32,000 nucleotides of DNA from Geobacter sulfurreducens PCA (GTDB taxonomy: Bacteria > Desulfobacterota > Desulfuromonadia > Geobacterales > Geobacteraceae), in assembly GCF_000007985.2 (NCBI RefSeq), contig NC_002939.5, forward strand, positions 930,001-962,000, given 5' to 3'. The notes beneath the pieces were generated by a model. It was not told the DNA's origin. It did not search any database and was given only the letters and a program-made list of their open reading frames with translations. A program made the translations under genes and the position numbers. Positions 7,788 to 24,295 of this stretch are shown in pieces (position 1 is the first letter of the stretch; the number at the start of each line of letters is the position of its first letter).

Positions 7788-9803
7788 TCACGGGGCGGGG
7801 AGCACCTCGATCCGCGTATCATAGAATGTGCTGCCGTTGCCCCGGTCCGTGAGCCGTTGGCTGGTGAGGGCGTTCACGGTCCGGTCGCCCGGGGCGTGCT
7901 CCAGCCACCAGACCCCCTCGGCCACGGCCACCCCCGGCGGAACCCGGTCGGTGATCCGCAGGATGAAGGCGACCCGGCCCCGGTCGTTGACGGCGGTCAC
8001 CCGCTGCCCCTCGGCCAGGTTCCGGGCTGTTGCCTCGGCCGGGTTCAGGAGGAGCGACATGGCGCCCCCCTGCTTCTGCCGCAGCTCTTCCTGCTCGTAG
8101 AAGGAGGCGTTCAGGGCGTAGGGGGTGGGGGCGGTCATGAGCCTGAGGGGAAGCTCGCCCGCGTCTTCGTGGCAAGGAATGTGACGGGGGAGTGGTTCAG
8201 GCTCGCGGGGATTGAGGATCTCCACCTTGCCCGAGGGAGTGGCGAAGATGCGCGGGGCATCGGGGGCCAGGGGGAGTTCCACGGCCAGACCCGCGTCGAA
8301 ACGGACCTGGTCGATCCCGGCCCGCATGGCGGTGGGGACCGACAGGAGCCGGTCGATCATCTCCCCGGCGCTCCGGCGGAAAAACTCCTCCTCGAACCCC
8401 ATGGCCCCGGCCAGCAGGGCGAAGGTGTCCCAGTTGGATCTGCTCTCCCCCACGGGCGGGATGGCAGGGTGGGCCCGCTGGATGCAGTAGGTGCCGTAGG
8501 CCCGGTACACGTCTGCGTGCTCTAGGGACGAGGTGGCCGGCAGCACGATGTCGGCGTAACGGGCCGTGTCGGTCAGGAACCGCTCGTGGACCACGGTGAA
8601 GAGGTCGTCCCGGCAGAGCCCCCGGATCACCTCGTTCTGGTCCGGGGTCACCGCGGCCGGGTTCGAGTGGTACACATACAGGGACATGACCGGCGGGTCG
8701 GCCAGCCCGGTCAGGGCGTGGCCGAGCCGGTTCATGTTCACGACGCGGGTGGGCCGCGCCATGAAGTCCTCACGCAGCACCTCTCCCAGGGCAAAGGCGG
8801 GACCGGTGCTCGTTGAGGCCAGACAGCCGCCGCCCCGCACGGCATAAGCCCCGGTCAGGGCGGGCAGGGCCGCGATGCAGCGCACCGTCATGGCCCCGTT
8901 GCCGTAGCGGGAAAGCCCGCTCCCCAGGCGGATGAAGGGGGCGCGCGCCCGGCCGTAGCGCCGGGCCAGCTCTTCGATCTCCGCCGCCGGGATGCCCGTG
9001 AGGGCCGCCACCCGCTCCGGGGGATAGTCCGGGAGAATCCGCTCCGCCAGCTCATCGTACCCCTGTACCCGTTCAGCCAGGAATGCCCGGTCCACCAGGC
9101 CGTCCCGGGCCAGCACGTGCATCATCCCCAGTGCCAGTGCTCCGTCGCTGCCGGGGCGGGGCAGGATCACCCGGTCGGCTGCAGCGGCCGTAGGGGTCCG
9201 GTAGGTGTCGATCACCCAGACAGGGGCTCCCCGCCTGCGGGCCTCGCGCACTCCGTGGAGGAAATGGATATTGGTGGCCGCCGCATTGATCCCCCAGAGG
9301 ATTACCAGGTCGCTCTCCGCCACTTCGTCCGGATGGGGGGCCGGAGTATCGCCCATTACTGCCTTCCACCCCGCCTCCTTGGCCGGTGAGCAGATGGTCC
9401 GCTCCAGCCGCGACGCCCCCAGCCGGTGGAAGAAGGGGTGACCGGCATTGCGCTGCACCAGTCCCATGGTGCCCGCGTAGGAATAGGGGAGGATCGCCTC
9501 GGCTCCGTGGACGGCGATGATCTCGCGCCAGCGGGATGCAATGGCGGCAACGGTCTCGTCCCACGACGCGGGCCGGAACGAACCGCTCCCCTTGGGGCCG
9601 GTCCGCACGAGCGGAGTGGTCAGCCGCCGGGAAGAGTGGACCGTCTTTTCATAGTGGAGCATCTTGGGGCAGAGGGTGCCCCGGGTGAAGGGGTGGTCTG
9701 GATCGCCGGTCACGCGCACCGCACGGCCGTTCTCGACCTCCACCAGCAAGCCGCAGGTGTCGGGGCAGTCATAGGGACAGACGGAACGCTTCAGTTCGGG
9801 CAT
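7788..9803 (-). CDS. Cytoplasmic molybdopterin-dependent oxidoreductase (MopB superfamily) with N-terminal 4Fe-4S motif
   Basis: Begins MPELKRSVCPYDCPDTCGLLVEVENGRAVRVTGDPDHPFTRGTLCPK (C-x2-C-x3-C...C). No twin-arginine signal. Start set at the internal ATG 9803, preceded by SD GGGAGG. The ORF-track extension to 10124 overlaps the kinase gene in another frame. Confidence 0.85.
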   Translation of the reverse strand: MPELKRSVCPYDCPDTCGLLVEVENGRAVRVTGDPDHPFTRGTLCPKMLHYEKTVHSSRRLTTPLVRTGPKGSGSFRPASWDETVAAIASRWREIIAVHGAEAILPYSYAGTMGLVQRNAGHPFFHRLGASRLERTICSPAKEAGWKAVMGDTPAPHPDEVAESDLVILWGINAAATNIHFLHGVREARRRGAPVWVIDTYRTPTAAAADRVILPRPGSDGALALGMMHVLARDGLVDRAFLAERVQGYDELAERILPDYPPERVAALTGIPAAEIEELARRYGRARAPFIRLGSGLSRYGNGAMTVRCIAALPALTGAYAVRGGGCLASTSTGPAFALGEVLREDFMARPTRVVNMNRLGHALTGLADPPVMSLYVYHSNPAAVTPDQNEVIRGLCRDDLFTVVHERFLTDTARYADIVLPATSSLEHADVYRAYGTYCIQRAHPAIPPVGESRSNWDTFALLAGAMGFEEEFFRRSAGEMIDRLLSVPTAMRAGIDQVRFDAGLAVELPLAPDAPRIFATPSGKVEILNPREPEPLPRHIPCHEDAGELPLRLMTAPTPYALNASFYEQEELRQKQGGAMSLLLNPAEATARNLAEGQRVTAVNDRGRVAFILRITDRVPPGVAVAEGVWWLEHAPGDRTVNALTSQRLTDRGNGSTFYDTRIEVLPAP

Positions 9804-9822: not shown

Positions 9823-11397
9823 TCAGGCCGGGGCACTCTCCGGGAGGGTGAAGTAGCAGGTGGTACCCGCCCCCTCGGCGCTTTCGAGCCAGACACGGCC
9901 CTGGTGGCGGGAAATGATCCGCTGCACGATGGCCAGCCCCACGCCGGTACCGGGGAACTCGTCCTGGCCGTGGAGTCGATGGAACGGCTCGAAGATCTTG
10001 TGGGCATAGCCCATGTTGAAGCCGGCGCCGTTGTCGCGGATGAAGCAGACGAGCTCTCCCTCCTGGTGCATGCTGCCGAACTCGATCCGCGCGTCGGCCC
10101 TGCGGGAGGTGAACTTCCAGGCATTGCCGATCAGGTTGTCCAGGGCCACCCAGAGGAGCTCAGGGTCCCCCGTGGCCGCGGCCCCCGGTTCCACCGACAC
10201 CGCCACCTGCCGCTGGGGTTCCGTTGCCCGGTGGGCCGCAACCACCTTCTCCACCAGTTCGCTCAGGTTCACCGGCTGCAGTTCAAGCTCCCGGCGCTGA
10301 ACCCGGAACAGGCTCGACATGGCGGACATGACCCGCTCCATCTGAACCCCCACCTCGGCGATCCGGTCCAGGTAGTCCCGCAGCTCCCCGTCCAGGCGGT
10401 CGCCGCAGTCCTCCTCAAGGGCCTGGCACAGGCCGCGCAGCCGGAGCAGCGGCGCCCGCAGATCGTGGGAGGCCGAGTAATTGAACGACTCCAGTTCCCG
10501 GTTGGCCGCCATGAGCTCGGCGGTCCGCCGGCGCACCATCTCCTCAAGGTTGACGTTCAGTTCCCGAATCTTGCGCTCCGACTCCTCCTGGGCCAGCTTG
10601 CGCTGGAGCAGCGACTCGGCCATGCTGTTGAACGACGCCGCCAGGGACCCCAACTCGTCCTGGGACTCCACCGGCACCCGCACCTCTTTGTTGCCCGCAG
10701 CGATCTCCCTGACCCCCCGCTCCAGGTGGGTCAGTGGCCGGGTAATTCCCCTGATCACGGGGTAGAGTGCTCCGATTACCGCCACCAGCGCAGCGGCGGT
10801 AACCAGCAGCGCCGTGGCTGCCAGCTGGTTCACTTTCCGGTGGAGCGGCCTCTCGTCCATCACCAGGTGCACCGATCCGATGACAGTACTGCTTTCACGG
10901 CCGCCCTCGAAGAAGAGGTCTTCCTCGTTGCCGGCCGAATGCTGGGTCAGGATCGGCTCCACGAACTCCAGGGAGTCCTGTCCGTCGCGGATGCGTCCCT
11001 CCACCCCAGGGCCGGGCGGGGAAAAAGCCGTTGGAGTACTTTTGTCGTTACGCGGATTTTGGCGGACGAAGTGGGCCAGCGGATGCCCTTCCCGGTCCAG
11101 GATTGCCGTTTCAAGCACAGTGCCGTGGCCCGTGACTCCCTGGACCACCTCCTGAAGCTGGTCGGTGTTGCCCGCGAAAAGGGGGAGCCGCGCGTTGTGG
11201 GCCAGGAGCCGCGTCATGAGCCGGCCCTCGGTGAGGAGCTTGTCGTGCAGGGAGCGGTACTGGTTGTAGAGGAAGAAGGCGGCAAAACAGGCGGAGAGGG
11301 CGATGATCGAGAGACAGATCACCGTAAAGAGCTTCGCCCGGAAGCTCGTGCGGAGAACGGCAAAAAAAGAACGCACTGGAGGAGCGTTCGCACCCAT
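9823..11397 (-). CDS. Membrane sensor histidine kinase (2 TM, periplasmic domain, HAMP, HisKA, HATPase_c)
   Basis: Two hydrophobic segments flank a roughly 150-aa extracytoplasmic region. H-box SASHDLRAPL, N-box DNLIGNAWKF, G-boxes IRDNGAGF and GTGVGLAIV. The start is 3 nt after the upstream gene's stop. Confidence 0.9.
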   Translation of the reverse strand: MGANAPPVRSFFAVLRTSFRAKLFTVICLSIIALSACFAAFFLYNQYRSLHDKLLTEGRLMTRLLAHNARLPLFAGNTDQLQEVVQGVTGHGTVLETAILDREGHPLAHFVRQNPRNDKSTPTAFSPPGPGVEGRIRDGQDSLEFVEPILTQHSAGNEEDLFFEGGRESSTVIGSVHLVMDERPLHRKVNQLAATALLVTAAALVAVIGALYPVIRGITRPLTHLERGVREIAAGNKEVRVPVESQDELGSLAASFNSMAESLLQRKLAQEESERKIRELNVNLEEMVRRRTAELMAANRELESFNYSASHDLRAPLLRLRGLCQALEEDCGDRLDGELRDYLDRIAEVGVQMERVMSAMSSLFRVQRRELELQPVNLSELVEKVVAAHRATEPQRQVAVSVEPGAAATGDPELLWVALDNLIGNAWKFTSRRADARIEFGSMHQEGELVCFIRDNGAGFNMGYAHKIFEPFHRLHGQDEFPGTGVGLAIVQRIISRHQGRVWLESAEGAGTTCYFTLPESAPA

Positions 11398-11400
11398 TGG

Positions 11401-12273
11401 TTACTCTCCGAGTCGTGCCGGGTCGATTCCCAGGTGGCGCGCCACCGAGCCGTTCAGCTTGAGGGTCGGCCGTGCCGGGCCTTCGGCCGGTACGCTCTCG
11501 ACGCCCACGCCGTCCATGATACGACGGGCCATCCTGCCCGCCTGGCGGCCCAGGTCGACCGGATCGATGGCCAGCGCCGCCAGGGCGCCCGTGCCCAGGT
11601 ACTTCTCGGCAAAGGCCACCACCGGTACCCGGCTGTTCTGGGAGAAGAGGAAGATCGCCTCCTGCCCCTCCCGGGTGAGTACCGTGGCGTCGGGGAAGAG
11701 CCAGAGCACATCGGTCTTGCCCGCCAGCTCCGACAGGGTGCGCGGCACGTCCCGGGGCGAGCGGACCACCCCTTCAACCAGGGTGATGCCCAGGCGCTCG
11801 GCCGCCGCGCGGGCCTGCCGCGCCATGACGCCGGTGCGCTCCGGGTCGTAGAGGATTCCCACCCGCCGGCCGCCGATACTGTCGCGGATGAAGGTAAGGT
11901 AGCGCTCGGGCGCCACCGTCATGGTCACCCCGGTCACGTTGCGGCCCAGGGCGCCGGTCGACTCGGGGGAGGCCACCATCACGTACACCACCGGAATCTC
12001 GCGGATCTCCCTCACCCGGATCAGGGCCTCGCGGCCCACGGCCAGCACCAGGCGGGGGCGCGCCTCGCGCACGGTCCGCACCACGTCGGCGCCCCGCAGC
12101 TCCGAGAGGACCAGCCGCTCCACGGTACGTACCCCGGCCGTCCCCTCGAAGCCGCGCACTGCCGCCTCGTAGGGGATGTTCCGCTCGCCCTGCACCACCA
12201 CGACCTCCGCGGCGAAAGCCGGGAAGCCCCAGAGGAGCAGCAAGGCGAGTATGTGGAAGATACGTGCCGTCAT
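11401..12273 (-). CDS. Periplasmic ABC-type substrate-binding protein (ABC_sub_bind-like) with no transporter partners in the window
   Basis: Signal peptide MTARIFHILALLLLWGFPAFA. Type I periplasmic-binding-fold-like sequence (VGILYDPERTG..., DVLWLFPDATV..., VPVVAFAEKYL). No adjacent permease or ATPase genes. Confidence 0.7.
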   Translation of the reverse strand: MTARIFHILALLLLWGFPAFAAEVVVVQGERNIPYEAAVRGFEGTAGVRTVERLVLSELRGADVVRTVREARPRLVLAVGREALIRVREIREIPVVYVMVASPESTGALGRNVTGVTMTVAPERYLTFIRDSIGGRRVGILYDPERTGVMARQARAAAERLGITLVEGVVRSPRDVPRTLSELAGKTDVLWLFPDATVLTREGQEAIFLFSQNSRVPVVAFAEKYLGTGALAALAIDPVDLGRQAGRMARRIMDGVGVESVPAEGPARPTLKLNGSVARHLGIDPARLGE

Positions 12274-12293: not shown

Positions 12294-14177
12294 TTACCAC
12301 TTGATGCGCAGGCCGCCTTCGAACCAGCGGCCGGGGTTTTTGAATATCTCGTCGTGATACTGGGCACCGTTGAACAGGTTGTGGCCGGTGGCGAAGAGCT
12401 CGGCCTCCGTGTTGTCGCTCCGGAAGAAGCGCCACCCTAGGTTGAGGTCCCAGATGAAGTTGTTGTATTCGGCCCCGAAGTAATCGGGGGTGTTCCACCA
12501 GCGATACGCACCGGTGAGAGCGCCGCGGAAGGTTCGGTCGTCGTAGTGAAGTCCCAGGTCCCAGGTGTGCCGGGCGACTGCGGGAAGTTTCTCGTCGGTC
12601 TGGAGGTTCTTGGCGTCGGTGAAGACATATCCGGCGGTGAGCCATGAGTTGTAAATCGGTGCGGTGCGGGCCTCTATCTCAAATCCTTCCCGTAGCGTCC
12701 TTGTTACGGTATCACCCCGCTCTTTGAATTGATTGCGGAACCAAGTCCCTTTGAGCCAGAGGAAGGGGATATCGGTGGTTTCGAGGCCGGCCTGTACGGT
12801 CCAACCGTTGTCTTTGGTGGAATAAGCCGGGTTCAGGATCGGCAAGTTGTAGCCCCGGGCGGCGTAGGCCCGGAGCAGGGTTTTATCCGTGACGCTGAAG
12901 GTGGCCCCGAGGCTCGGGCTGAAGAAGTCGCCGGAGTGGCTGGTGAGGTCGTAGCGGACCGCCGGGGTGATGCTGAACCGCTCCCAGGTGATGGTGTCGT
13001 TTAGGAAGAAGCCCCACTTGTCGTTGGAGGCGTCGATCGTTTGGTTGAACAGGAAAAGAGGGTAGTCAAAGCTCGTCTTGGTCTGGCCATGGTCGAACTC
13101 GACTCCGCCGGTCAGGGTGTGGACCCCCTGGCGCCAAGTGAGGATGGCCGCACCGCCTGATGTTATTTCGTCGCTGGTGATGGTGGAGAAACGTTCGCCA
13201 GTGCTGAGGGTGTCATCAATACGGGTATAGTCAAACCGGCTACCCTTAAAGAACGTGTTGAAAGTGAGTCGGTCGGTCAGATTGTAGTCGAGAGAGATAG
13301 TCGACTGGAGGAAGCGGATCTTGAGTCGATCGGAATAGTCAGCAAACGTAATCAGGCCAATCTGCGGCGCCGTCTCCATGGAATTGAAGGTTAGACGTAA
13401 GCTTCCCCGGTCGGCTAGGTTCCAGCGGAGCTTGGCATAGGCGTTGTTGTTTTCGGTGGCGTTGAAGGAGTGGAAGCCGTTGCTCTTGACGTTGCCGCCC
13501 GACAGGTAGTAGCCGAAGCTTCCCACCGTACCGGAGACTTCGCCCCGGCCGTCACGGGTGCCGTTCTCGCCGCCCGAGAAGGAAGCGGCGCCGCTGAAGG
13601 AGGCGTGGAGGGCCGGTTCCTTGGTGATGACGTTGACGATCCCCCCCAGTGAGTTGCCCCAGCTTGAGGAGGCAGGCCCCTTGAGTACCTCCACCCGCTC
13701 GATGATCTGGACCGGAACCATGCCTGGGGCGGCAAAGTTGTCGAACTGATCGTCAATGGGAACTCCATCGACCAAAATCTGGATGTATCGGGTGGTGGCG
13801 CCTGCGAATTCAGTGAAGGTGATGGATGCCGGAGCAGTATTGCCGGAGACCTGAACACCGGGAACCGTAGCTAGCACGTCGGCCAGAGTGTGGGCGTTCA
13901 TCGCTTCTATCTGCTCGGCAGTGATGACCGTGATGTTTTCAGCACTCCGCGAAAGTGGCCGGGGGGAGCGGGTGGCGGTGGAGACGGTCAGGTCCTGGGG
14001 CTCGTAGTAGAGTTCCAGGAGTTCTCGGTCGCTGTCGGTTTCGGCGTGGGCCGTGAAGGGTAAGGTCAGGGCGAGGAGACCCAAGAAAAAAAAGAGCCCC
14101 GGAAGCAACGACGAAAGGCGCCGAAAGGTGCTTCCGGCGCGCGATTTCGCAGTGTTGATAGGGCTCGCAGTTGGCAT
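12294..14177 (-). CDS. TonB-dependent receptor family outer-membrane protein (plug + beta-barrel)
   Basis: Signal peptide ending FTAHA. Plug region ITVITAEQIEAMNAHTLADVLATVPGVQV and VEVLKGPASSSWGNSLGGIVNVITK. Barrel with alternating aromatic and Gly residues, ending in GGLRIKW (terminal aromatic). Confidence 0.9.
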   Translation of the reverse strand: MPTASPINTAKSRAGSTFRRLSSLLPGLFFFLGLLALTLPFTAHAETDSDRELLELYYEPQDLTVSTATRSPRPLSRSAENITVITAEQIEAMNAHTLADVLATVPGVQVSGNTAPASITFTEFAGATTRYIQILVDGVPIDDQFDNFAAPGMVPVQIIERVEVLKGPASSSWGNSLGGIVNVITKEPALHASFSGAASFSGGENGTRDGRGEVSGTVGSFGYYLSGGNVKSNGFHSFNATENNNAYAKLRWNLADRGSLRLTFNSMETAPQIGLITFADYSDRLKIRFLQSTISLDYNLTDRLTFNTFFKGSRFDYTRIDDTLSTGERFSTITSDEITSGGAAILTWRQGVHTLTGGVEFDHGQTKTSFDYPLFLFNQTIDASNDKWGFFLNDTITWERFSITPAVRYDLTSHSGDFFSPSLGATFSVTDKTLLRAYAARGYNLPILNPAYSTKDNGWTVQAGLETTDIPFLWLKGTWFRNQFKERGDTVTRTLREGFEIEARTAPIYNSWLTAGYVFTDAKNLQTDEKLPAVARHTWDLGLHYDDRTFRGALTGAYRWWNTPDYFGAEYNNFIWDLNLGWRFFRSDNTEAELFATGHNLFNGAQYHDEIFKNPGRWFEGGLRIKW

Positions 14178-14221
14178 GGGGCTTGCTTTGATGAGCTGGC
14201 AAAGTTGGAACAGACGTATGG

Positions 14222-14251
14222 CTTATAGCAGAGGAGCAGGACGAATGTCTA
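14222..14251 (-). promoter_or_regulatory. Sigma70-type promoter candidate for the TBDR-SBP-HK-oxidoreductase operon
   Basis: The minus strand reads TAGACA (complement of 14246-14251), 18-nt spacer, TATAAG (complement of 14222-14227). It lies about 45 nt upstream of the receptor ATG at 14177. Confidence 0.45.
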
Positions 14252-14306
14252 TCGCTTTTTGTCCGAAAGGGTAATGACGTCAGGTCGAAGAGAGGGGGTG
14301 AGACTA

Positions 14307-14426
14307 ATGAGCCAAATGACGGATGATGTGACGGTTCTCGACGCTGGCAATCCGACCCCCACAGAGGGGCGGGCGGCTTGCTGCACGTCGACGATTGCCG
14401 CTACGAGGGTCCAGCCGGAGGAGTAG
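14307..14426 (+). CDS. Unannotated 39-codon ORF: candidate precursor peptide for the downstream radical SAM/SPASM enzyme
   Basis: Below the ORF-track length cut-off. ATG at 14307 is preceded by SD GAGGGGG with an 8-nt spacer. It translates to MSQMTDDVTVLDAGNPTPTEGRAACCTSTIAATRVQPEE, ending at TAG 14424-14426. About three quarters of third codon positions are G/C, as in real genes here. Same strand as the maturase and 220 nt upstream of it. An alternative in-frame ATG at 14274 would give 50 aa but has poor SD spacing. Confidence 0.45.
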   Translation: MSQMTDDVTVLDAGNPTPTEGRAACCTSTIAATRVQPEE

Positions 14427-14432
14427 AAAACC

Positions 14433-14472
14433 GCAGAACGAGAAAGGGGCCATGGCCCCTTTCTCGTTCTGC
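14433..14472. repeat. Perfect 40-nt palindrome (18-bp stem, CATG loop) 7 nt after the small ORF's stop
   Basis: GCAGAACGAGAAAGGGGC-CATG-GCCCCTTTCTCGTTCTGC, arms exactly reverse-complementary (checked base by base). An A-run lies upstream and there is no T-run downstream on the + strand. Confidence 0.9.
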
Positions 14473-14646
14473 TCTCACAAAAACGGTACGAACTGTCCAT
14501 CCCCGGCCGGCGGACGGCCACGGAAGCAGCCACGAAGCCCCCGTTTTCCGGACCGCCATGGACTTTGGCGTCTTCGTCCATGGTGCTGGGGCGATGCGGC
14601 AATCTCTGAGATAGTTATTTCTTCATCCCTTTTCGGAGTCCATCCC

Positions 14647-15984
14647 ATGATCCTCTCCCGCTACGTCTCCTCTTACCCTTGTTCGGAATCACCCGACCAC
14701 GTCATCCTCTTCTCCTGCCGTACCGGCGCGGTGGTGCGGGGTTCCCGGTCCACCCTCGACGCGGCCCAGGCCGGCACCCTTTCTCCTGCCGCGGCCGAGA
14801 CCCTGGAGAAGCACGGCTTTCTCACGCCCGGCCCCGAGGCCGAGCGGGCGGAGATGCTCGCCTGGTTCGACCGGATCAACGCCGAGCGGCGCCGGGCCGG
14901 CATGGTGGCGGTGCTCACGCGGCGCTGCAACCTGGCCTGTCCCTACTGCTTCGAGGGAGGGCAGGCGCCGGAAGGCGACATGAGCGAGGAGACCGCGGAC
15001 CTCCTGGCCGCGATGATCGAGCGGGAGTACCTGGCAAAGGGGTGGCGGGTGGATATGGATTTCTACGGCGGCGAGCCGCTGCTCCGGCCCGACCTGATCA
15101 GGCGGATCGCGGAGCCGCTGCGAGCCGCGGGGGGCGGGCTGTTCCACGGCAACATGGTCAGCAACGGCTCCCTGCTGAACCGGGCGGTGATGACGGACCT
15201 GACAGCTTTGGGGATCGAGTCGGTCAAAGTGACCCTGGACGGTCCGCCCCAGGTGCACGACCGGTACCGCCCCTACGGCGGCGGCGCCGGGAGCTTTCAC
15301 GACATCCTGCGGGGAATGGGCGAGGTGGTCGATCTGGTGAAGATCCACGTGGGAGGGAACTTTACCCGGGAGACCTGGCGGGAATACCCGGCGCTCCTGG
15401 ACCTGCTGCTGGCAGAGGGGTTCACCCCGGACCGGCTCGGCACGGTGCGCTTCACCCCGGCCGTGGGGGGGAAGGGGAGCGGAGCGTTGCCCCACTTCGC
15501 CGAGGGGTGCGTGACCTGCGAGGAGCCGTGGCTGGCCGAGGCGGAGCTGGTGCTGCGGGAGGAGTTGATGAAGCGGGGCTTCGGCGTGCCCAAGCCCGGC
15601 CCCTTTTCCTGCATGATCGAGCTAGAGAGCGACCTGGCCGTGGACGCCGACGGCCGCTGCTACAAGTGCCCGGCCTTCATGGGGCACGAGGGGTATGCCG
15701 TGGGCGACCTGCGCGCCGGCTTCAGCCCTACGGCACCGTCCTACGGCTACGATATCTGGCGCCGGGAGGAGTGCCTGGACTGCTCCTGGCTCCCCCTCTG
15801 CTTCGGCGGCTGCCGCTTCATGAAGCTGGTGGAGGCCGGGGCGGTGACCGGCGTGTCGTGCCAGCGGGAGTACCTGGCCGGCACGGTGGAGACGATGGTG
15901 CGCCGGGGGGCTGGCGGTGGGCAGCTCAGTCCAGCAGTGAATCCAGGTGATCGAAGTCCAGAATCTCTTCGGCCTGGGCCTTGA
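14647..15984 (+). CDS. Radical SAM / SPASM-domain enzyme, peptide-maturase-like
   Basis: CNLACPYC (Cx3Cx2C) SAM cluster motif. C-terminal SPASM pattern ...DADGRCYKC... and CLDCSWLPLCFGGC (Cx2Cx5Cx3C). The N-terminal ~75 aa (MILSRYVSSYP...ILFSCRTGAVV...LEKHGFL) resemble the leader-binding N-terminal region of anSME-type peptide maturases. Start set at ATG 14647 (SD GGAG, 8-nt spacer) rather than the ORF-track 14395. Confidence 0.85.
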   Translation: MILSRYVSSYPCSESPDHVILFSCRTGAVVRGSRSTLDAAQAGTLSPAAAETLEKHGFLTPGPEAERAEMLAWFDRINAERRRAGMVAVLTRRCNLACPYCFEGGQAPEGDMSEETADLLAAMIEREYLAKGWRVDMDFYGGEPLLRPDLIRRIAEPLRAAGGGLFHGNMVSNGSLLNRAVMTDLTALGIESVKVTLDGPPQVHDRYRPYGGGAGSFHDILRGMGEVVDLVKIHVGGNFTRETWREYPALLDLLLAEGFTPDRLGTVRFTPAVGGKGSGALPHFAEGCVTCEEPWLAEAELVLREELMKRGFGVPKPGPFSCMIELESDLAVDADGRCYKCPAFMGHEGYAVGDLRAGFSPTAPSYGYDIWRREECLDCSWLPLCFGGCRFMKLVEAGAVTGVSCQREYLAGTVETMVRRGAGGGQLSPAVNPGDRSPESLRPGP

Positions 15985-17020
15985 CCAGCTCGATCTTTTC
16001 GGTGTCCTCGGCGCTGATCTTTGAGACGTGGTGCTTCATGGCCGAGAAGACGTCGGCGGTGGTCTCGTGGATGCGGATGACGGGGATGTTGCTCCCGTCG
16101 AGGATCTGCTGGGTGATGGCCGACACCGGGGCGTGGCCGGGGATGACCAGGCCGGCGATCTTCTCCCGGTAGGCCGGGATGTGGTAGAGGGACGAGATGG
16201 TGACCAGGAGCTCGTCCCGGGAGCTGGTGACCACCAGCAGGGTGGACTGCTCCAGGCCGTCGATGACCTTCTGGGAGGAGGCAGCCCCCAGCTGGATGTG
16301 GTGGACGATGCGGGTCCCCTGGGTCTGGTCGCCCCGCAGGGGGTGCTCCAGCAGGCGGGAGATGTGATTGAGGGTCGGGTTGGCCAGGACCGGGGACCAG
16401 TCGAAGGCACCGATTACCTCGATGCCGAAGGGCTTGAAGGAACGGCCCAGGTACGAGAGGGAGGTCTCCCGCTTTTCGGGCAGGAGCTTGTTGACCACAA
16501 GCGCCTTGACCGGCACCTCTTCCATCCGGTAGAGGGGGAGGTTGAGCTGGACCGAGTCGATGACGTTGCCGATGCCGCCGCCGCTCACCAGGATCACGGG
16601 CGCACCGGTGATCTTGGCAACCCGGGCGTTGTTGAGGCCGATGACCGAGCCCACCCCGCCGTGGCCCGACCCTTCGATGATCAGGAAGTCGTTTTTCTTC
16701 TCCAGGGCGGCAACCGCCTCGGTGATCCGCTCCACGGGCCAGAGCGCCGGGATCTCGCCGTCGATGAACTTCTTGGTGGAGCCCCGGCCGAGCACCACGG
16801 GGGACATGTGGGCGATGTCCTCTCCAAGCCCGAAGATGCGGGCCATGAGGGCCGCGTCCTTGTCCACGGTGATGCCGTTGAAGACTTGGCACTTGGGGCC
16901 CACGGCCTTGATGAAGCCGACCCGGCCGTATTTCTTGCGGGCCAGGTGCATGAGCGAGACGCTGATGGTGGTCTTGCCCGCGTTCATGCCGGTGGCGGCG
17001 ATGAAGATCTTTCTGCTCAT
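15926..17020 (-). CDS. Stand-alone BioD-like P-loop + DRTGG domain protein (resembles the N-terminal regulatory half of Pta; no acetyltransferase domain)
   Basis: MSRKIFIAATGMNAGKTT P-loop, IIEGSGHGGVGS, and later LLVVTSSRDELL... in a DRTGG-like region. Start set at internal ATG 17020. Confidence 0.7.
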   Translation of the reverse strand: MSRKIFIAATGMNAGKTTISVSLMHLARKKYGRVGFIKAVGPKCQVFNGITVDKDAALMARIFGLGEDIAHMSPVVLGRGSTKKFIDGEIPALWPVERITEAVAALEKKNDFLIIEGSGHGGVGSVIGLNNARVAKITGAPVILVSGGGIGNVIDSVQLNLPLYRMEEVPVKALVVNKLLPEKRETSLSYLGRSFKPFGIEVIGAFDWSPVLANPTLNHISRLLEHPLRGDQTQGTRIVHHIQLGAASSQKVIDGLEQSTLLVVTSSRDELLVTISSLYHIPAYREKIAGLVIPGHAPVSAITQQILDGSNIPVIRIHETTADVFSAMKHHVSKISAEDTEKIELVKAQAEEILDFDHLDSLLD

Positions 17021-17042
17021 GACGGTGACGATCTCCCGACAA

Positions 17043-17094
17043 TGGTTATTCCGGTAGAATGAGCAGTATAATTTTACCATTCAAAGGGATGCAA
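17043..17094. promoter_or_regulatory. AT-rich divergent promoter region with overlapping -10 boxes on both strands
   Basis: + strand: perfect TATAAT at 17067-17072, with a poor -35. Minus strand: TTGCAT (complement of 17089-17094), 18 nt, TATACT (complement of 17065-17070). This is the only markedly AT-rich stretch between the two divergent genes. Confidence 0.3.
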
Positions 17095-17249: not shown

Positions 17250-18575
17250 ATGAAACGAAAAACCCTCCCCAAACTCCTCTACGCCGACGCCAAAGGAAAC
17301 ATCTTCGATCATCCCCATCTCTGCATGGCCGGCATGAGCGGCTCCGAAGCGGTGCTCCCCGAATCGGTGGAGCTGATCCCGCTGCCCGAGGGGAGCCGGC
17401 TCTTTACCATCCCGGATACGCCGCCCGTTGCCTGGGACGAGCAGCAGCGGAAGTTCGTGACCGTGGCCTCGGTGCGGGAGGGGCGGCGCCCGATGCCGGT
17501 GCAGGCGGTGTCGGCCTTCATGGCGCCGGGGTACGTGCGGCTGCTGCTGCCGGCGTGCGATTATTCGCGCAAGAAGGTGCACCTCCCCCTCTGGTCGTAC
17601 ACGGCGGTGGGCTGGGACGAGGAGCGGGACTGCTTCGTGGTGGCGGCGAGCCGGGTGGACACCAACCAGAACTGGAACCCCTGCAACTACGACGACCGGA
17701 AGCTGGACCCCCTGGTGCGGCAGCGGTTGGCGGAAATGCCCCACAACCGGCTCCTGGAGCAGTTGGCCCGCTGCGCGGTGGATTACCACTGCTTCGCGGC
17801 CAAGAACCTCTTTTTCCGCCGATGGGAGGCGCCGCTCCCCACCTCGCCGGCGTGCAACTCGCGCTGCCTCGGGTGCATCAGCCTCCAGCCCTCGGACTGC
17901 TGCCCGGCCAACCACGAGCGGATCGGCTTCGTCCCCACGCCGGAGGAGATCGTGGAACTGGCCCTGCCGCACCTGCTGGAGGCGCCGGAACCCATCGTCT
18001 CCTACGGCCAGGGGTGCGAGGGGGACCCGATCATGCAGGCGGACACCGTGGCCGAGGCCACGCGGCGGCTGAAGGCGGCCACTTCCCGGGGGACGGTGAA
18101 CTTCAACTCCAACGGCTCCTTCCCGGACCGGATCGCCATGCTCTGCGACGCGGGCATGGACTCCATGCGCTTTTCCATGAACTCGGTGCGGGAGGAGGTC
18201 TACGACCGGTACTACCGGCCGGTGGGATACCGCTTCGCCGAGGTGAAGGAGTCGGTGCGGCTGGCGGGGGAGCGGGGGCTGTTCACCATGATCAACTACC
18301 TGGTGTCGCCGGGGGTGTCGGACAGCGCCGACGAGGTGGAGGCCCTGCTCCGCTTCATCGGCGAGACCGGGGTGAAGATGATCCAGATGCGGAACCTGTC
18401 CATTGACCCGGATTTCTACAACAAGCGGATGGGCGCCACGGGGCGGGGCATCGGCATGTACCGGATGCTGGAGCGGGTGAAGCGGGAGTTTCCCCACATC
18501 CAGTACGGCTACTACAACCGGACCAGAGAGAACTTCTTTCCGGCGGGGTATGAGAAGGGGTGGCCGATCCGCTAG
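17250..18575 (+). CDS. Radical SAM protein with a ~200-aa N-terminal extension of unknown function
   Basis: ACNSRCLGC (Cx3Cx2C) at about residue 200, followed by a TIM-barrel-like core (SYGQGCEGDP, NFNSNG, MNSV). The conserved-looking N-terminal region is unassigned. Confidence 0.8.
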   Translation: MKRKTLPKLLYADAKGNIFDHPHLCMAGMSGSEAVLPESVELIPLPEGSRLFTIPDTPPVAWDEQQRKFVTVASVREGRRPMPVQAVSAFMAPGYVRLLLPACDYSRKKVHLPLWSYTAVGWDEERDCFVVAASRVDTNQNWNPCNYDDRKLDPLVRQRLAEMPHNRLLEQLARCAVDYHCFAAKNLFFRRWEAPLPTSPACNSRCLGCISLQPSDCCPANHERIGFVPTPEEIVELALPHLLEAPEPIVSYGQGCEGDPIMQADTVAEATRRLKAATSRGTVNFNSNGSFPDRIAMLCDAGMDSMRFSMNSVREEVYDRYYRPVGYRFAEVKESVRLAGERGLFTMINYLVSPGVSDSADEVEALLRFIGETGVKMIQMRNLSIDPDFYNKRMGATGRGIGMYRMLERVKREFPHIQYGYYNRTRENFFPAGYEKGWPIR

Positions 18576-19186
18576 TCGGGCAGCCCTTCCACAACCATCC
18601 GGGCCCACTCGTGCAGCGCCAGATCCCGGTAGGTCTTGAAAATCCGTCCATCTCTCGTGCGGAAGAGCTTTTTGGGTTCGCGGTCGTCGATCGAGTTGTC
18701 GTACACATATGCCCGGTCAACCATGGAGATCGCCAGGGCGCTGTTGGCAATGGAGCGCTGGTAGCGGGAAATGATCTTGGCGATGGGGACATCGTGACCG
18801 CCCGCCATGACCCGCCTGGCGACGCGGGCAGCATTGATCGCGGGGCTGTCGGTGCCGATGAAAAAGAAGCGGATGAAGAAGTCGGCTTCTTTCGCCCGCC
18901 TGATAAAATCCAGTTTTTCCGGGACGGAAAAAACCGTTTCCAGGAGCATGCTCCTTTTTCCCCTCAAGCACTCCTCCCTGAGTTCCTGAGCCCTGGCCGC
19001 AGCTTTCATTACGGCCTCGGGAGAGTTCCAGTCACCGAATTCATTCTTGGCGATCTCATCGGGGTTGATGAAGATGCAGCCCTCCGACCAGTCGTGTCTG
19101 AGGACCTGGCTCGTGAACGTTGTCTTGCCCGAGCCGTTCGGCCCGGCAATGACGATCAGCTTATGCCTGAGAGCGCTTTTCGCCAT
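18572..19186 (-). CDS. Zeta-toxin-like / COG4185-type P-loop kinase (putative toxin)
   Basis: Walker A GPNGSGKTT. RVMAGGHDVPIAKIISRYQRS, characteristic of the zeta/COG4185 group. Start set at ATG 19186 (MAKSALRHKLIVIAGPNGSGKTT). Confidence 0.7.
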   Translation of the reverse strand: MAKSALRHKLIVIAGPNGSGKTTFTSQVLRHDWSEGCIFINPDEIAKNEFGDWNSPEAVMKAAARAQELREECLRGKRSMLLETVFSVPEKLDFIRRAKEADFFIRFFFIGTDSPAINAARVARRVMAGGHDVPIAKIISRYQRSIANSALAISMVDRAYVYDNSIDDREPKKLFRTRDGRIFKTYRDLALHEWARMVVEGLPD

Positions 19187-19370
19187 GGGCCTGGAACGCC
19201 TCGCGGGCCGACTCAATCTCGCGCCGCAGGTTGTCTCGAAGCAACTGCTTCAGCTCAATGGTCTGGGCCTTGGTCCGCTCGGCGACAGCCCGCATCATTT
19301 CGTTCAGTTCCTTCTCGGAAATCTCCCGGGGTCGCTCGTGGGATTCCTTATGTTTTTCAACAGGCTTCAT
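19161..19370 (-). CDS. Small charged helical protein, putative cognate antitoxin
   Basis: The 69-aa ORF MKPVEKHKESHERPREISEKELNEMMRAVAERTK... has SD GGAGG 4 nt upstream. Its 3' end overlaps the toxin start by 26 nt, the classic toxin-antitoxin layout. Confidence 0.5.
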   Translation of the reverse strand: MKPVEKHKESHERPREISEKELNEMMRAVAERTKAQTIELKQLLRDNLRREIESAREAFQAHGEKRSQA

Positions 19371-21804: not shown

Positions 21805-21820
21805 CGGCACCCGGATGGCA
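21805..21820 (+). promoter_or_regulatory. Weak sigma54-like -24/-12 element upstream of the protease gene
   Basis: cGGCAC-CCGGA-TGGCA versus TGGCAC-N5-TTGCW. GG and GC are correctly spaced, with two other mismatches. Confidence 0.25.
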
Positions 21821-21952
21821 ATTTGCGCTCCCGGCCGGGACGGGGCATTAGGGCCTCGCGGTTTCAGTCCGGTATCTGTTATAGTGGAGGCTCGGGGCGC
21901 AGAACAGGGACCGGCGGGCAGCATTTCCACCCCGCCGCGAGAAGGGGATACC

Positions 21953-24295
21953 GTGAAGCATGGAGTATGGGAGCGTGTGAGCGTGATGTGCCGGTTTCTG
22001 CCGGTCCTGCTGGCAATGGCGACGGCGCCGGCATGGGCCGCGCCGGCTGCGGGGTCGAAGGTGCCCGCCGAGGTGGGGGCTGCCCTGGCGCGGGGCGAGT
22101 CCCGGGAATTGATCGTCCTGCTGGATGACGGCCCGGTGGAGGCCGAACTGGCGGGCATCCGGGCGCAATCCGCGTCGCCGGCCGACGAGCGGGAGGCGGC
22201 TCGCCGACGGCTCGCGCTGAAGTCGGCGCGGTACGGCGAGATGAAGGGGCGCCTCGCCGCCGACCTGGCGGAAGAGCGAATGGAGGTGGTCAGAGAGTAC
22301 AGCCACCTGCCGCTCTTCTTCGCGCGGGTGGGATCGGCCAGGGCCCTTGAGCGGCTGGCGGGCCGCGCCGAGGTGAAGAGGGTTTTCCCCAACGAGGCCC
22401 GGAAGCTCCAGCTCACCGAGAGTCTTCCCCTGATTGAACAGCCCCGGGCCGCGGCTGCCGGTTTCACGGGCGCCGACACATCGGTGGCGGTCTTCGACAC
22501 GGGGGTCGACTACACCCGGCCGGCCTTCGGCTCCTGCACCGCGCCGGGCACGCCGGCCGGGTGCAAGGTAATCGTGTCCATCGATACGGCGTCCCCGGAT
22601 TTCCAGCTTGACGACCCCGACTCCTATCACGGCACCGGCGTGTCCGCCATTGTCCTGGGGGTGGCTCCCGACACCCGCATCATCGCCATCGACGTCTTCG
22701 ACGGTGAATACGCCTATGATGCGGACATCATCGAGGCCGCCAACTGGGCGATCGCCAATCGCGCCACCTACAACATCGTGGCCATCAACATGAGCCTTGG
22801 CGCGGGCTCGTTCACCTCGCCCTGCACCGATACCACCTACAATACCCTGGTGAGCCAGGTCCGCGCGGCAGGGATCATGCCCGTTGCCGCCTCGGGCAAC
22901 GAAGGACTGACGAACGCCCTCATTGCGCCGGCATGCATCCCGGGCGTGATTTCGGTGGGCGCGGTTTACGATGATTACAGCTACTTCCACGGAACCTGTC
23001 TCGATCCCATGGTGCCCGACAAGGTGGCCTGCTTCTCAAACAGCGCATCCTTTCTCACCCTGCTGGCCCCGGGGGCCTATATCACCGCGGCCGGAGAGCT
23101 CACGGCCGGCACCTCCGAGGCGACCCCCCATGTGTCGGGGGCCGTGGCGGTACTCCGATCGGCTTTTCCGGCGGAGTCCCTCGATGCGATTCAGGCGCGC
23201 CTCACCTCCACCGGCAAGCCGGTGACCGATTCCCGGAACGGGGTGACGAAACCGCGCATCAATGTTGCCGCGGCCATCGGCCCGCCCGCCAACGATCTCT
23301 TTTCCGCAGCCCAGGCCCTGCCCGCCACTGCCGGCCAGACTACCGGCGTCAACCTGAACGCCACCCGTGAGACAGGCGAGCCCGATCACGCGGGGGTGGC
23401 CGGGGGTGCCTCGGTCTGGTGGACCTGGCAGGGCCAGACCAGCGGAATCGTGTCCCTGGATACCCACGGCAGCTCCTTCGATACCCTGCTGGCGGTTTAT
23501 ACCGGCACCAGTGTGGGAAATCTGACGCCGGCCGCCGCCAATGACAACGACGGCGGCGTCGGCGGCACCAGCGGGCTGACCTTTACGGCCTTGGCGGGAG
23601 AGGTGTACCGGATTGCCGTGGACGGCCGGAACGGAGTCACGGGGCGCATTACCCTGAACCGGAACTTTACCCCGTCGGCCACAGCAGATATTGCCGTCGC
23701 CGCCTCGGGAGCACCGTCGACGAGCTTCGTGGGGGAACTGGTAACCTACACGGTGAGTGTCATCAACTACGGCCCGGAGACGGCAACCGAGGTGACGGTG
23801 ACCGATCCGATCCCTGCGGGGGCCACCTTTGTTTCCGCTTCCCCGGGGTGCGCCCTGTCAGGCAGCACCGTTACGTGCAACATCGGAACCCTGGCAGTCG
23901 GGGGGAGCGTCTCCTACACCATCGTGCTTAGCCCCACGCTGGCTGGCACCCTGAGCAACACCTTCCAGGCGGCCGGTTTCACCAACGATCCCGCCCCGGG
24001 CAACAACGCCTCGGCTGTCTATACGCCGGTGGCTGCATTTGTGTATCCGGTGCTGGTGGACAATGTGCAGTATCCAATGCTTCAGAACGGCTTCGACATT
24101 GTCCAGGAGGGGGGCGTGGTCATGGCCACGGCGAGCCTGTTCACGGAACAGCTGCTGCTGAGCCGCGCCGTCCGGTTCACCCTGCAGGGAGGCTATGACG
24201 CCTTCTTCACCTCCGCCACCGGCTACACCACCCTGCAGGGGAGCCTGACCCTTGCCAGAGGGGCGGTGACCGTTGACCGGTTGATCGTCCGCTGA
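21953..24295 (+). CDS. Secreted multidomain S8 (subtilisin-like) serine protease with propeptide, PPC-like domain and DUF11-type repeat domain
   Basis: Catalytic triad contexts VAVFDTGVD, HGTGVSAIV and GTSEATPHVSGAVAVL. Signal peptide VKHGVWERVSVMCRFLPVLLAMATAPAWA. Later comes GEPDHAG...SVWWTW...FDTLLAVYTG, a pre-peptidase-C-terminal-like region. Then ADIAVA...LVTYTVSVINYGPETATEVTVTDPIPAG, a DUF11-like domain. Start is either GTG 21953 (SD AAGGGG, 6-nt spacer) or ATG 21986. The ORF-track start at 21815 is unlikely. Confidence 0.85.
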   Translation: MKHGVWERVSVMCRFLPVLLAMATAPAWAAPAAGSKVPAEVGAALARGESRELIVLLDDGPVEAELAGIRAQSASPADEREAARRRLALKSARYGEMKGRLAADLAEERMEVVREYSHLPLFFARVGSARALERLAGRAEVKRVFPNEARKLQLTESLPLIEQPRAAAAGFTGADTSVAVFDTGVDYTRPAFGSCTAPGTPAGCKVIVSIDTASPDFQLDDPDSYHGTGVSAIVLGVAPDTRIIAIDVFDGEYAYDADIIEAANWAIANRATYNIVAINMSLGAGSFTSPCTDTTYNTLVSQVRAAGIMPVAASGNEGLTNALIAPACIPGVISVGAVYDDYSYFHGTCLDPMVPDKVACFSNSASFLTLLAPGAYITAAGELTAGTSEATPHVSGAVAVLRSAFPAESLDAIQARLTSTGKPVTDSRNGVTKPRINVAAAIGPPANDLFSAAQALPATAGQTTGVNLNATRETGEPDHAGVAGGASVWWTWQGQTSGIVSLDTHGSSFDTLLAVYTGTSVGNLTPAAANDNDGGVGGTSGLTFTALAGEVYRIAVDGRNGVTGRITLNRNFTPSATADIAVAASGAPSTSFVGELVTYTVSVINYGPETATEVTVTDPIPAGATFVSASPGCALSGSTVTCNIGTLAVGGSVSYTIVLSPTLAGTLSNTFQAAGFTNDPAPGNNASAVYTPVAAFVYPVLVDNVQYPMLQNGFDIVQEGGVVMATASLFTEQLLLSRAVRFTLQGGYDAFFTSATGYTTLQGSLTLARGAVTVDRLIVR

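Follow-up and report, generated by a model that had tools for sequence, protein, structure and literature searches.

The window analysed here is a stretch of 32,000 nucleotides (nt) of Geobacter sulfurreducens PCA (NC_002939.5, positions 930,001 to 962,000, forward strand), and our subject is a small cassette within it: a short open reading frame (ORF) lying inside an apparent intergenic gap of 469 bp, followed by the gene for a radical S-adenosylmethionine (SAM) enzyme with a SPASM domain. An earlier note, made from the sequence of the window, had pictured this pair as precursor and maturase of a ribosomally made peptide with post-translational modifications (RiPP). On re-reading the sequence we find the hidden ORF of 39 residues, its Shine-Dalgarno sequence, its cysteines, the hairpin behind it and the SPASM enzyme all in place; and by its profile matches the locus belongs to a family already named in NCBIfam, that of the geopeptides. 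The elements of the cassette, in coordinates of the window, are these:

14172..14187, + strand: predicted sigma-54-type promoter, TGGCAT-N5-TTGCT (TGGCATGGGGCTTGCT), consensus score 14/15
14292..14298, + strand: Shine-Dalgarno sequence GAGGGGG, 8 nt ahead of the precursor ATG, read from the sequence
14307..14426, + strand: geopeptide precursor gene, 39 residues, identified by its TIGR04229 match, conservation in 26 loci and substitution pattern
14433..14472, + strand: perfect 18-bp GC-rich hairpin with a 4-nt loop, 7 nt past the precursor stop
14647..15984, + strand: geopeptide radical SAM/SPASM maturase, 445 residues, identified by TIGR04280, invariant cysteines, AlphaFold2 and Foldseek

The precursor ORF runs from the ATG at 14307 to the TAG at 14424-14426. 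Its product, MSQMTDDVTVLDAGNPTPTEGRAACCTSTIAATRVQPEE, carries a leader motif, V-T-V-L-D-A-G, at residues 8-14 and the invariant pair Cys25-Cys26, which is followed by a tail of 13 residues with an arginine at +8. The NCBIfam hidden Markov model (HMM) TIGR04229, "geopeptide", matches residues 8-30 over its entire 22-position profile with 36 bits, against a cutoff of 30 (E 3.7e-9). Since the enzyme likewise exceeds the curated cutoff of its own model, TIGR04280, the name geopeptide, which the earlier note had put forward only tentatively, proves to be the right one, and the comparison it proposed with the peptide-maturase models of NCBIfam comes out positive for peptide and enzyme alike. The TIGR04229/TIGR04280 pair has been defined computationally; with both cutoffs passed and the same order of peptide (14307-14426) then enzyme (14647-15984) on the + strand, an order kept in all the related loci described below, the window locus is a member of it. 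The ORF has GC contents of 0.59/0.59/0.74 at its three codon positions, in a window of mean GC 0.65. Its third-position GC had been said to match that of the genes here: it is gene-like at 0.74, but lies below the 0.77-0.93 of the window genes, and its composition is thus gene-like at the low end of the range.

We followed the ORF through 26 peptide-bearing loci (L numbers are our own handles). Besides the window itself, a genome scan supplied five of them, a metagenome scan nine, look-ups of contigs with enzyme homologues seven (L008 and L009, since both carry P0113, being counted once) and look-ups of receptor homologues four. The metagenome scan, made with the enzyme alignment, used generic radical SAM motifs; about 10 of its 80 loci are family members, the remainder serving as negative controls, and L014 was omitted from the nine because its upstream flank is only 73 nt long. 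Over the 26 loci, enzyme identity to the window enzyme ranges from 37 to 95%. An ORF of 29-40 residues lies immediately 5' of the enzyme gene, intact and in frame, in every one of them; the disruption at orthologous loci that the earlier note had named as evidence against the idea is nowhere seen. All 18 of the loci listed for this feature have a strong Shine-Dalgarno sequence (GGAGG- or GGGGG-type) ahead of the peptide start. Substitutions among the window and four close relatives are, as that note had thought they might be, mostly synonymous, with nonsynonymous to synonymous rate ratios (dN/dS) of 0.13-0.37 at synonymous sites near saturation. Because the frame is conserved in all related loci examined, chance does not account for the ORF, and the comparison indicates that it is a genuine gene, with purifying selection acting on the protein. 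What appears to be an intergenic gap thus hides such a gene. With both HMMs passed, the peptide kept in 26 loci and dN/dS in this range, we consider it highly probable that the small ORF and the radical SAM enzyme form a precursor-maturase pair, as had been proposed. The negative control, radical SAM relatives whose identity is 31% or lower, shows neither a Cys-Cys peptide nor the receptor described below.

Alignment of the 26 peptides leaves the two adjacent cysteines as the sole invariant positions. Gly14 is more than 90% conserved, and 5' of the Cys-Cys pair the leaders share a hydrophobic-x-hydrophobic-hydrophobic-D/E-x-G motif, separated from the cysteines by a spacer of 8-12 residues, most commonly 10. 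The tail after the cysteines varies freely over 7-15 residues, except that a basic residue stands at +6 to +9 in 22 of the 26 peptides and at exactly +8 in 18 (counting every peptide whose basic positions include +8). The core that had been proposed, CCTSTIAAT, accordingly survives in its first two residues, which are conserved as predicted, but not in the rest; the alignment favours a core of CC and seven or more further residues, with Arg or Lys at +8 in most cases. Two variant precursors mark the tolerated bounds of the leader motif: that of L010 (4121-4222) has three consecutive cysteines and the leader VMMVMEEG, and that of L096 (- strand, MDQNLEVLTDAMDVQIEIGCCYTALAVVI) lacks the conserved glycine (LEVLTDA).

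The reach of the curated peptide model is limited: among the peptides of ten relatives one reaches the TIGR04229 cutoff, six score 21-28 bits and three give no geopeptide match. The gene is therefore probably unannotated in many genomes. In G. pickeringii, G. hydrogenophilus and several metagenome-assembled genomes, homologues of the enzyme already bear the NCBI name "geopeptide radical SAM maturase". The family had been described as restricted to Geobacter; that description has to be given up, because the assembly record of L095 labels its TonB-dependent receptor Thermodesulfovibrionales, by which label the range of the family is wider than Geobacter.

The maturase gene extends from the ATG at 14647, preceded by a GGAG at 14635-14638, to position 15984. 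With 561.6 bits its product clears the cutoff of 400 for TIGR04280, "geopeptide radical SAM maturase"; residues 1-420 align with positions 1-423 of the 428 in that profile. The radical SAM motif CX3CX2C is formed by C94, C98 and C101 (14926-14949; PF04055, 54.9 bits), and eight auxiliary cysteines, C288, C322, C341, C376, C379, C385, C389 and C405 (15508-15861), lie in the region of the SPASM domain (TIGR04085, 47.9 bits, cutoff 27), where they would hold two auxiliary 4Fe-4S clusters; both sets are invariant in an alignment of 62 homologues. Pfam recognises only the radical SAM core. Other models of NCBIfam score as follows:

TIGR04463: 119.6 bits, cutoff 525, below
CefB: 107.5 bits, cutoff 600, below
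PapB (NF047865): 101.1 bits, cutoff 340, below
SCIFF maturase (TIGR03974): 73.1 bits, cutoff 425, below
anaerobic sulfatase maturase (TIGR03942): 60 bits, cutoff 349, below
RumMC: 49 bits, cutoff 720, below
PqqE (TIGR02109): 47.4 bits, cutoff 381, below
GeoRSP (TIGR04303): 45.7 bits, cutoff 400, below

The next-best models (TIGR04463, CefB, PapB, Clo7bot, nif11) are all for maturases of Cys-rich peptides. GeoRSP, a system of TIGR04303 and its partners that the earlier note had also named and that is likewise Geobacter-associated, of the radical SAM/SPASM type and defined only computationally, does not include this enzyme. Nor does the enzyme group with the anaerobic sulfatase maturases, which the earlier note had held out as a finding that would tell against a peptide substrate: its TIGR03942 score is far under the cutoff, and as a structural neighbour the sulfatase maturase ranks lower, aligns over the core alone and is without the N-terminal domain.

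An AlphaFold2 model of the maturase built on the 62-sequence alignment has a predicted local distance difference test (pLDDT) score of 85.3 and a predicted template modelling (pTM) score of 0.85. At its N-terminus strands 7-11, 18-23 and 29-33 and helices 34-42, 47-55 and 63-80 are modelled with pLDDT above 92; judged from this predicted fold, residues 1-85 (14647-14901) would constitute a domain like the RiPP recognition element (RRE). Foldseek aligns the full length of the model with CteB (E 1.7e-18, 458 columns), TigE (TM-score 0.68), ChlB, SuiB and SkfB, and a profile search of PDB sequences also returns CteB as best (E 2e-33). CteB, TigE and SuiB are peptide-modifying SPASM enzymes with N-terminal peptide-binding domains. 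The best solved-structure match by both sequence and fold is thus CteB (PDB 5wgg, 5why), the thioether maturase of the SCIFF peptide CteA (thermocellin), with which the geopeptide enzyme, going by its predicted fold, would share an architecture of N-terminal peptide-binding domain, radical SAM barrel and SPASM domain with two auxiliary clusters, as well as a Cys-containing substrate encoded next door. The likeness to the SCIFF and PapB enzymes is one of fold and mechanism only: identity to CteB is about 22%, the maturase fails both models, and its substrate has two adjacent cysteines where SCIFF peptides and ranthipeptides have six, or repeated C-X3-D motifs. Unlike CteB and PapB, the geopeptide system is found in Gram-negative anaerobes and is linked to a TonB-dependent receptor.

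By homology to these enzymes the likeliest chemistry would be a radical thioether linking a Cys sulfur with a carbon in one of the tail residues, and we give this an even chance. Because no position of the tail is conserved, an acceptor that does not depend on the side chain (the alpha-carbon, as happens in sactipeptides) appears more likely than the beta- or gamma-carbon of a fixed residue. That the pair makes a cysteine-cross-linked peptide we regard as about evenly balanced. The last 20 or so residues of the maturase are unconserved and have pLDDT below 50; the 3' end of its gene overlaps a convergent AAA_26/DRTGG gene (15926-17080) by 58 nt.

Between the two genes, the hairpin has a folding energy of -39.4 kcal/mol; its z score is -6.9, and not one in 200 shuffled sequences folds equally well. 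The tail that follows it on the + strand is TCTCACAAAAA; a terminator scan scores the site on the - strand only. A GC-rich stem-loop lies between peptide stop and enzyme start in 17 of the 18 loci folded, the exception being L015 with a weak AT-rich fold, and in at least eight relatives (L006, L010, L012 and L017 among them) a T-run follows, making these classical terminators. The position of the hairpin is kept among loci and its sequence is not, which fits a structural role: it may act as a partial terminator or as a stabiliser of the mRNA, setting the ratio of precursor to enzyme. Messages for RiPP structural genes are commonly in excess of those for the enzymes, and if read-through at the hairpin is partial, precursor mRNA would exceed enzyme mRNA.

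A short ORF followed by a strong hairpin upstream of an enzyme gene is also the anatomy of an attenuator, and the ORF could be read as a regulatory leader peptide that, with the hairpin, attenuates the radical SAM gene, the true substrate being encoded elsewhere. Several observations make us consider this extremely improbable. The peptide is conserved at the level of its amino acids, as the dN/dS values attest; its invariant cysteines keep their distance from a conserved leader motif over all 26 loci; no alternative anti-terminator pairing is evident; and the enzyme has, in its predicted fold, an N-terminal domain of the peptide-binding type. The spacer between hairpin and enzyme was also considered as the place of a conserved RNA or of another small ORF, and this was rejected, since both length and sequence vary over the five Geobacter loci. 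Aligned, the spacers of these loci carry unrelated palindromic inserts, and that of the window, 220 nt, is otherwise unconserved. An Rfam scan of the entire window at the gathering threshold found no RNA family, so that neither hairpin nor spacer matches a known riboswitch or leader. In L001 (about 7790-7830), with equivalents in L003, L004 and L005 and none in the window, a palindromic repeat, CCCCCACGTACTTTCTTTGGSCGSCCAAAGAAAGTACG, lies between hairpin and enzyme; it looks like an intergenic repeat of the repetitive extragenic palindrome (REP) type.

On the other side of the cassette, divergent from the precursor gene, lies an operon of three genes of interest:

12294..14177, - strand: TonB-dependent receptor, 627 residues, of the plug plus 22-strand-barrel type and the size of BtuB (PF07715, PF00593)
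11401..12273, - strand: periplasmic binding protein of family PF04392 (ABC_sub_bind), with a signal peptide (Pfam, 95.5 bits)
9823..11397, - strand: membrane sensor histidine kinase, last gene of the receptor operon (Pfam)

Of the 26 loci, 25 have a homologue of the receptor (34-80% identity) adjoining the cassette. Two gene orders are seen: the receptor is divergent from the cassette in Geobacter-like loci, and others have the order receptor-peptide-enzyme (for example L006, L008, L011-L013, L015, L016, L028, L091, L093 and L095). The PF04392 protein has a homologue near the cassette in 20 of the 26, as well as in L014, and is followed by a homologous kinase in 16 loci, listed as the window, L001-L006, L010, L090-L094, L096 and L097. 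The kinase has two transmembrane segments, an sCache_4-like periplasmic domain, and HAMP, HisKA and HATPase domains; a sigma-54 response regulator adjoins in six loci (L008, L090, L092, L094, L096, L097). No permease or ATPase of the ATP-binding cassette (ABC) type accompanies the PF04392 gene at the locus. A minimal form of three genes is seen in L011 and L012, whose flanks hold no detectable homologue of binding protein or kinase, the annotated neighbours of L012 being unrelated genes; homologues of these two were also missing from the flanks available for L013, L015 and L028. We also ran the search in reverse and blind, choosing four homologues of the window receptor on long contigs regardless of their context: all four stand beside a geopeptide-type radical SAM gene (42-46% identity), a CC peptide and a PF04392 gene, and one of the four is L095, with its Thermodesulfovibrionales label.

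The earlier note had suggested that the product may be intracellular, since nothing else seemed linked. This is weakened by finding a receptor almost always adjacent, usually together with a binding protein and kinase, and it is from the adjacency of the receptor (25/26), its signalling partners and the outcome of the reverse search (4/4) that we judge the geopeptide product to be probably extracellular, and re-imported or sensed. The receptor may accordingly serve as receptor or importer of the mature peptide, and the PF04392 protein may be the periplasmic ligand-binding partner of the kinase. An intracellular cofactor precursor, like that of pyrroloquinoline quinone (PQQ) or mycofactocin, was the alternative; in its favour, PqqE and MftC are SPASM radical SAM proteins as this enzyme is, and no exporter or protease is linked. 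We think it very unlikely: the PqqE model scores far under its cutoff, there is no conserved partner dehydrogenase or further tailoring enzyme, the tail after the cysteines varies freely, unlike a cofactor of fixed structure, and the partners that are conserved are an outer-membrane receptor and periplasmic sensors.

The predicted sigma-54 promoter lies 120 nt 5' of the precursor ATG and overlaps the start codon of the receptor gene (CAT, 14175-14177). Scored against a consensus of GG-N10-GC with TGGCAC-N5-TTGCW-like flanks, for which random 300-nt windows drawn from these loci reach 13 or more in about 1% of cases, it has counterparts equally far from the peptide gene in L001-L005 and L007, and L015 has a match too (seven loci); the block is conserved in the alignment of the Geobacter clade. 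Its co-location with the kinase and, elsewhere, with sigma-54 regulators suggests a loop in which kinase would act through regulator on the cassette promoter.

Other signals recur in this region. An inverted repeat, GCGCCGaAAG ... CTTcCGGCGC (14118-14140), lies inside the coding sequence of the receptor, towards its 5' end, some 40 nt upstream of the -24 element of the sigma-54 promoter; its arms (CGCCGGAA-N6-TTCCGGCG in consensus) are kept, with a variable spacer, in 5/5 of the Geobacter-clade loci aligned, and it could be the site of an enhancer-binding protein or a structure of the receptor mRNA. The short blocks GCTTATAGCAGA (14221-14232) and TGTCTAT (14246-14252), between predicted promoter and Shine-Dalgarno sequence, recur in relatives. 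TTGTCCA is found within 150 nt upstream of the peptide in eight of the 26 loci, from several clades (the maximum in shuffled sequences being five), and in L097 forms the palindrome TGTCCATAGTTATGGACA. Such recurring blocks may be the binding site of a regulator.

The same genes might be taken as a module of receptor, binding protein, kinase and sigma-54 regulator that senses some other ligand, a metal complex or a nutrient, and merely regulates the cassette, the peptide not being its ligand and perhaps acting elsewhere. The accessory genes are indeed of a signalling rather than a transport kind, no ABC permease or ATPase being present; a sigma-54 promoter is predicted ahead of the peptide gene; and no exporter for the peptide is conserved. 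The three-gene loci L011 and L012 tell against it, for there the receptor gene runs in the same direction as those for peptide and enzyme, and no homologue of binding protein or kinase was detected in the flanks, which links the receptor to the peptide directly. Receptor homologues down to 40% identity, moreover, always carry the cassette, as would be expected of a cognate pair. We consider sensing of another ligand unlikely, and return to the reading in which the peptide itself is recognised.

One form of that reading, a sub-case rather than a true alternative, is a metallophore. Methanobactin operons encode the MbnA precursor, MbnBC, the TonB-dependent transporter MbnT, the periplasmic binding protein MbnE and regulators, and the geopeptide layout parallels them in its small Cys-bearing precursor, modifying enzyme, dedicated TonB receptor, periplasmic binding protein and regulatory module. 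Comparing genes alone, the two differ in that the geopeptide enzyme is a radical SAM/SPASM protein where MbnB and MbnC are an iron enzyme pair, and in that the geopeptide locus has neither a MATE exporter nor a sigma/anti-sigma pair. Sulfurs derived from the cysteines would chelate a metal outside the cell, the receptor would import the complex, and binding protein and kinase would report its arrival. The invariance of the adjacent cysteines suits this, as do the BtuB-like size of the receptor, many homologues of which JGI calls "vitamin B12 transporter", and a gene with an HMA domain near L015. This last is not a conserved neighbour, however; conversion of both thiols to thioethers would lower affinity for metal, no inner-membrane importer is linked, and no site for a metal-responsive regulator was identified. 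A methanobactin-like metallophore therefore strikes us as distinctly unlikely.

Taken as a whole, the locus is best explained as a geopeptide RiPP cassette, a reading in which we have moderate confidence and which would work as follows. The sigma-54-type promoter (14172-14187) would drive the short, efficiently translated gene for the 39-residue precursor, and the stable hairpin would pass only part of the transcripts into the maturase gene. The RRE-like domain at the N-terminus of the maturase would bind the beta-strand-like VTVLDAG of the leader, allowing the radical SAM cluster and the two SPASM auxiliary clusters to modify the core around the adjacent cysteines, most likely by thioether cross-links from Cys sulfur to carbon in the tail of at least seven residues. 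Removal of the leader and export, by steps that this locus does not encode, would release a mature peptide which the adjacent TonB-dependent receptor would bring back through the outer membrane; the PF04392 protein would then present it to the sensor kinase in the periplasm, either by itself or complexed with a metal, and the kinase would feed back via a sigma-54 regulator on the cassette promoter. We put at about even the odds that the product is exported and then recognised by the receptor beside the cassette and by the periplasmic sensor.

A number of observations weigh against this scheme. All-against-all clustering of the neighbourhood ORFs revealed no further shared family; in particular, neither an exporter nor a leader peptidase is conserved with the cassette, and the peptide itself has no signal sequence. 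L018 has the cassette without a receptor, with a divergent ORF for a polysaccharide-flippase-like membrane protein (1-1094) upstream. No residue after the cysteines is conserved as an acceptor for the cross-link in the 26-peptide alignment, and the chemistry cannot therefore be read from the sequence. Pfam finds no match to PqqD or RRE in residues 1-90 of the maturase even at E 10. The stable hairpin reported in the earlier note is present after the stop, but in the window no U-tract follows it on the + strand. A sigma-54 promoter was not found in L090 and L092 despite their adjacent sigma-54 regulators, and no gene for a sigma-54 activator lies within the window. Finally, we found no paper on the geopeptide family or its gene neighbourhood, in literature coverage that was incomplete. 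As to L018, its contig is only 2.1 kb long and a receptor may lie past the end.

What the comparison adds to the TIGR04229/TIGR04280 family, all by computation, is a nearly universal neighbourhood, made up of receptor, binding protein, kinase and sigma-54 regulator; a hairpin that is conserved; a core of the pattern CC-X7-basic; and an occurrence wider than Geobacter. The link to the receptor, missing from the first reading of the locus, offers a direct handle on the function of the product. We know of no characterised ribosomal natural product from Geobacter and related metal-reducing anaerobes, organisms important to metal cycling and bioelectrochemistry; with its invariant cysteine pair, its CteB-like maturase and its conserved receptor/sensor/sigma-54 neighbourhood, the family is a compact candidate, open to testing, for a secreted signal or a peptide that binds metal in them. 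A geopeptide cassette is in itself unsurprising in kind, and it is as a well-supported target for new RiPP chemistry, and possibly for TonB-gated peptide sensing, that it merits attention. More broadly, and only tentatively, for we think it doubtful, geopeptides could be a RiPP class of Gram-negative anaerobes that is released, re-imported through TonB-dependent receptors, sensed by PF04392 protein and kinase and autoinduced through sigma-54, an autoinducer or metallophore-sensing loop with a new Cys-Cys cross-link chemistry.

Two peptidase genes elsewhere in the window were considered for removal of the leader and rejected. The S8 protease (21815-24295), raised speculatively in the earlier note, is a real gene, but it stands about 6 kb away behind housekeeping genes, outside the conserved module and not among the shared flank families. 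Members of the TldD/PmbA family process some RiPP leaders, for example that of microcin B17; the TldD/PmbA-family metallopeptidase here (30229-31611, - strand) lies 14 kb away, again behind housekeeping genes, and is not among the shared flank families either. The genes downstream of the maturase, for the AAA_26/DRTGG protein (15926-17080), a second radical SAM enzyme (17250-18575), acylphosphatase and LigA, were also discounted as parts of the module: they are common to close Geobacter relatives only, and their linkage is therefore a matter of synteny.

This second radical SAM enzyme, of 441 residues and with no SPASM match, keeps about 92% identity in those Geobacter relatives that have it, genomes in which the maturase is only 78-82% identical, and is probably a housekeeping enzyme outside the cassette. 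On the opposite flank, a molybdopterin oxidoreductase gene (7788 to about 9806, - strand), whose product has no obvious export signal, directly follows the sensor kinase on the same strand and is common to the five closest loci only. A Zeta-toxin/AAA_33-like kinase gene (18572-19216, - strand) is preceded by an overlapping ORF for 69 charged residues (19161-19370, - strand) that matches no family, and the two may be a toxin-antitoxin-like pair.

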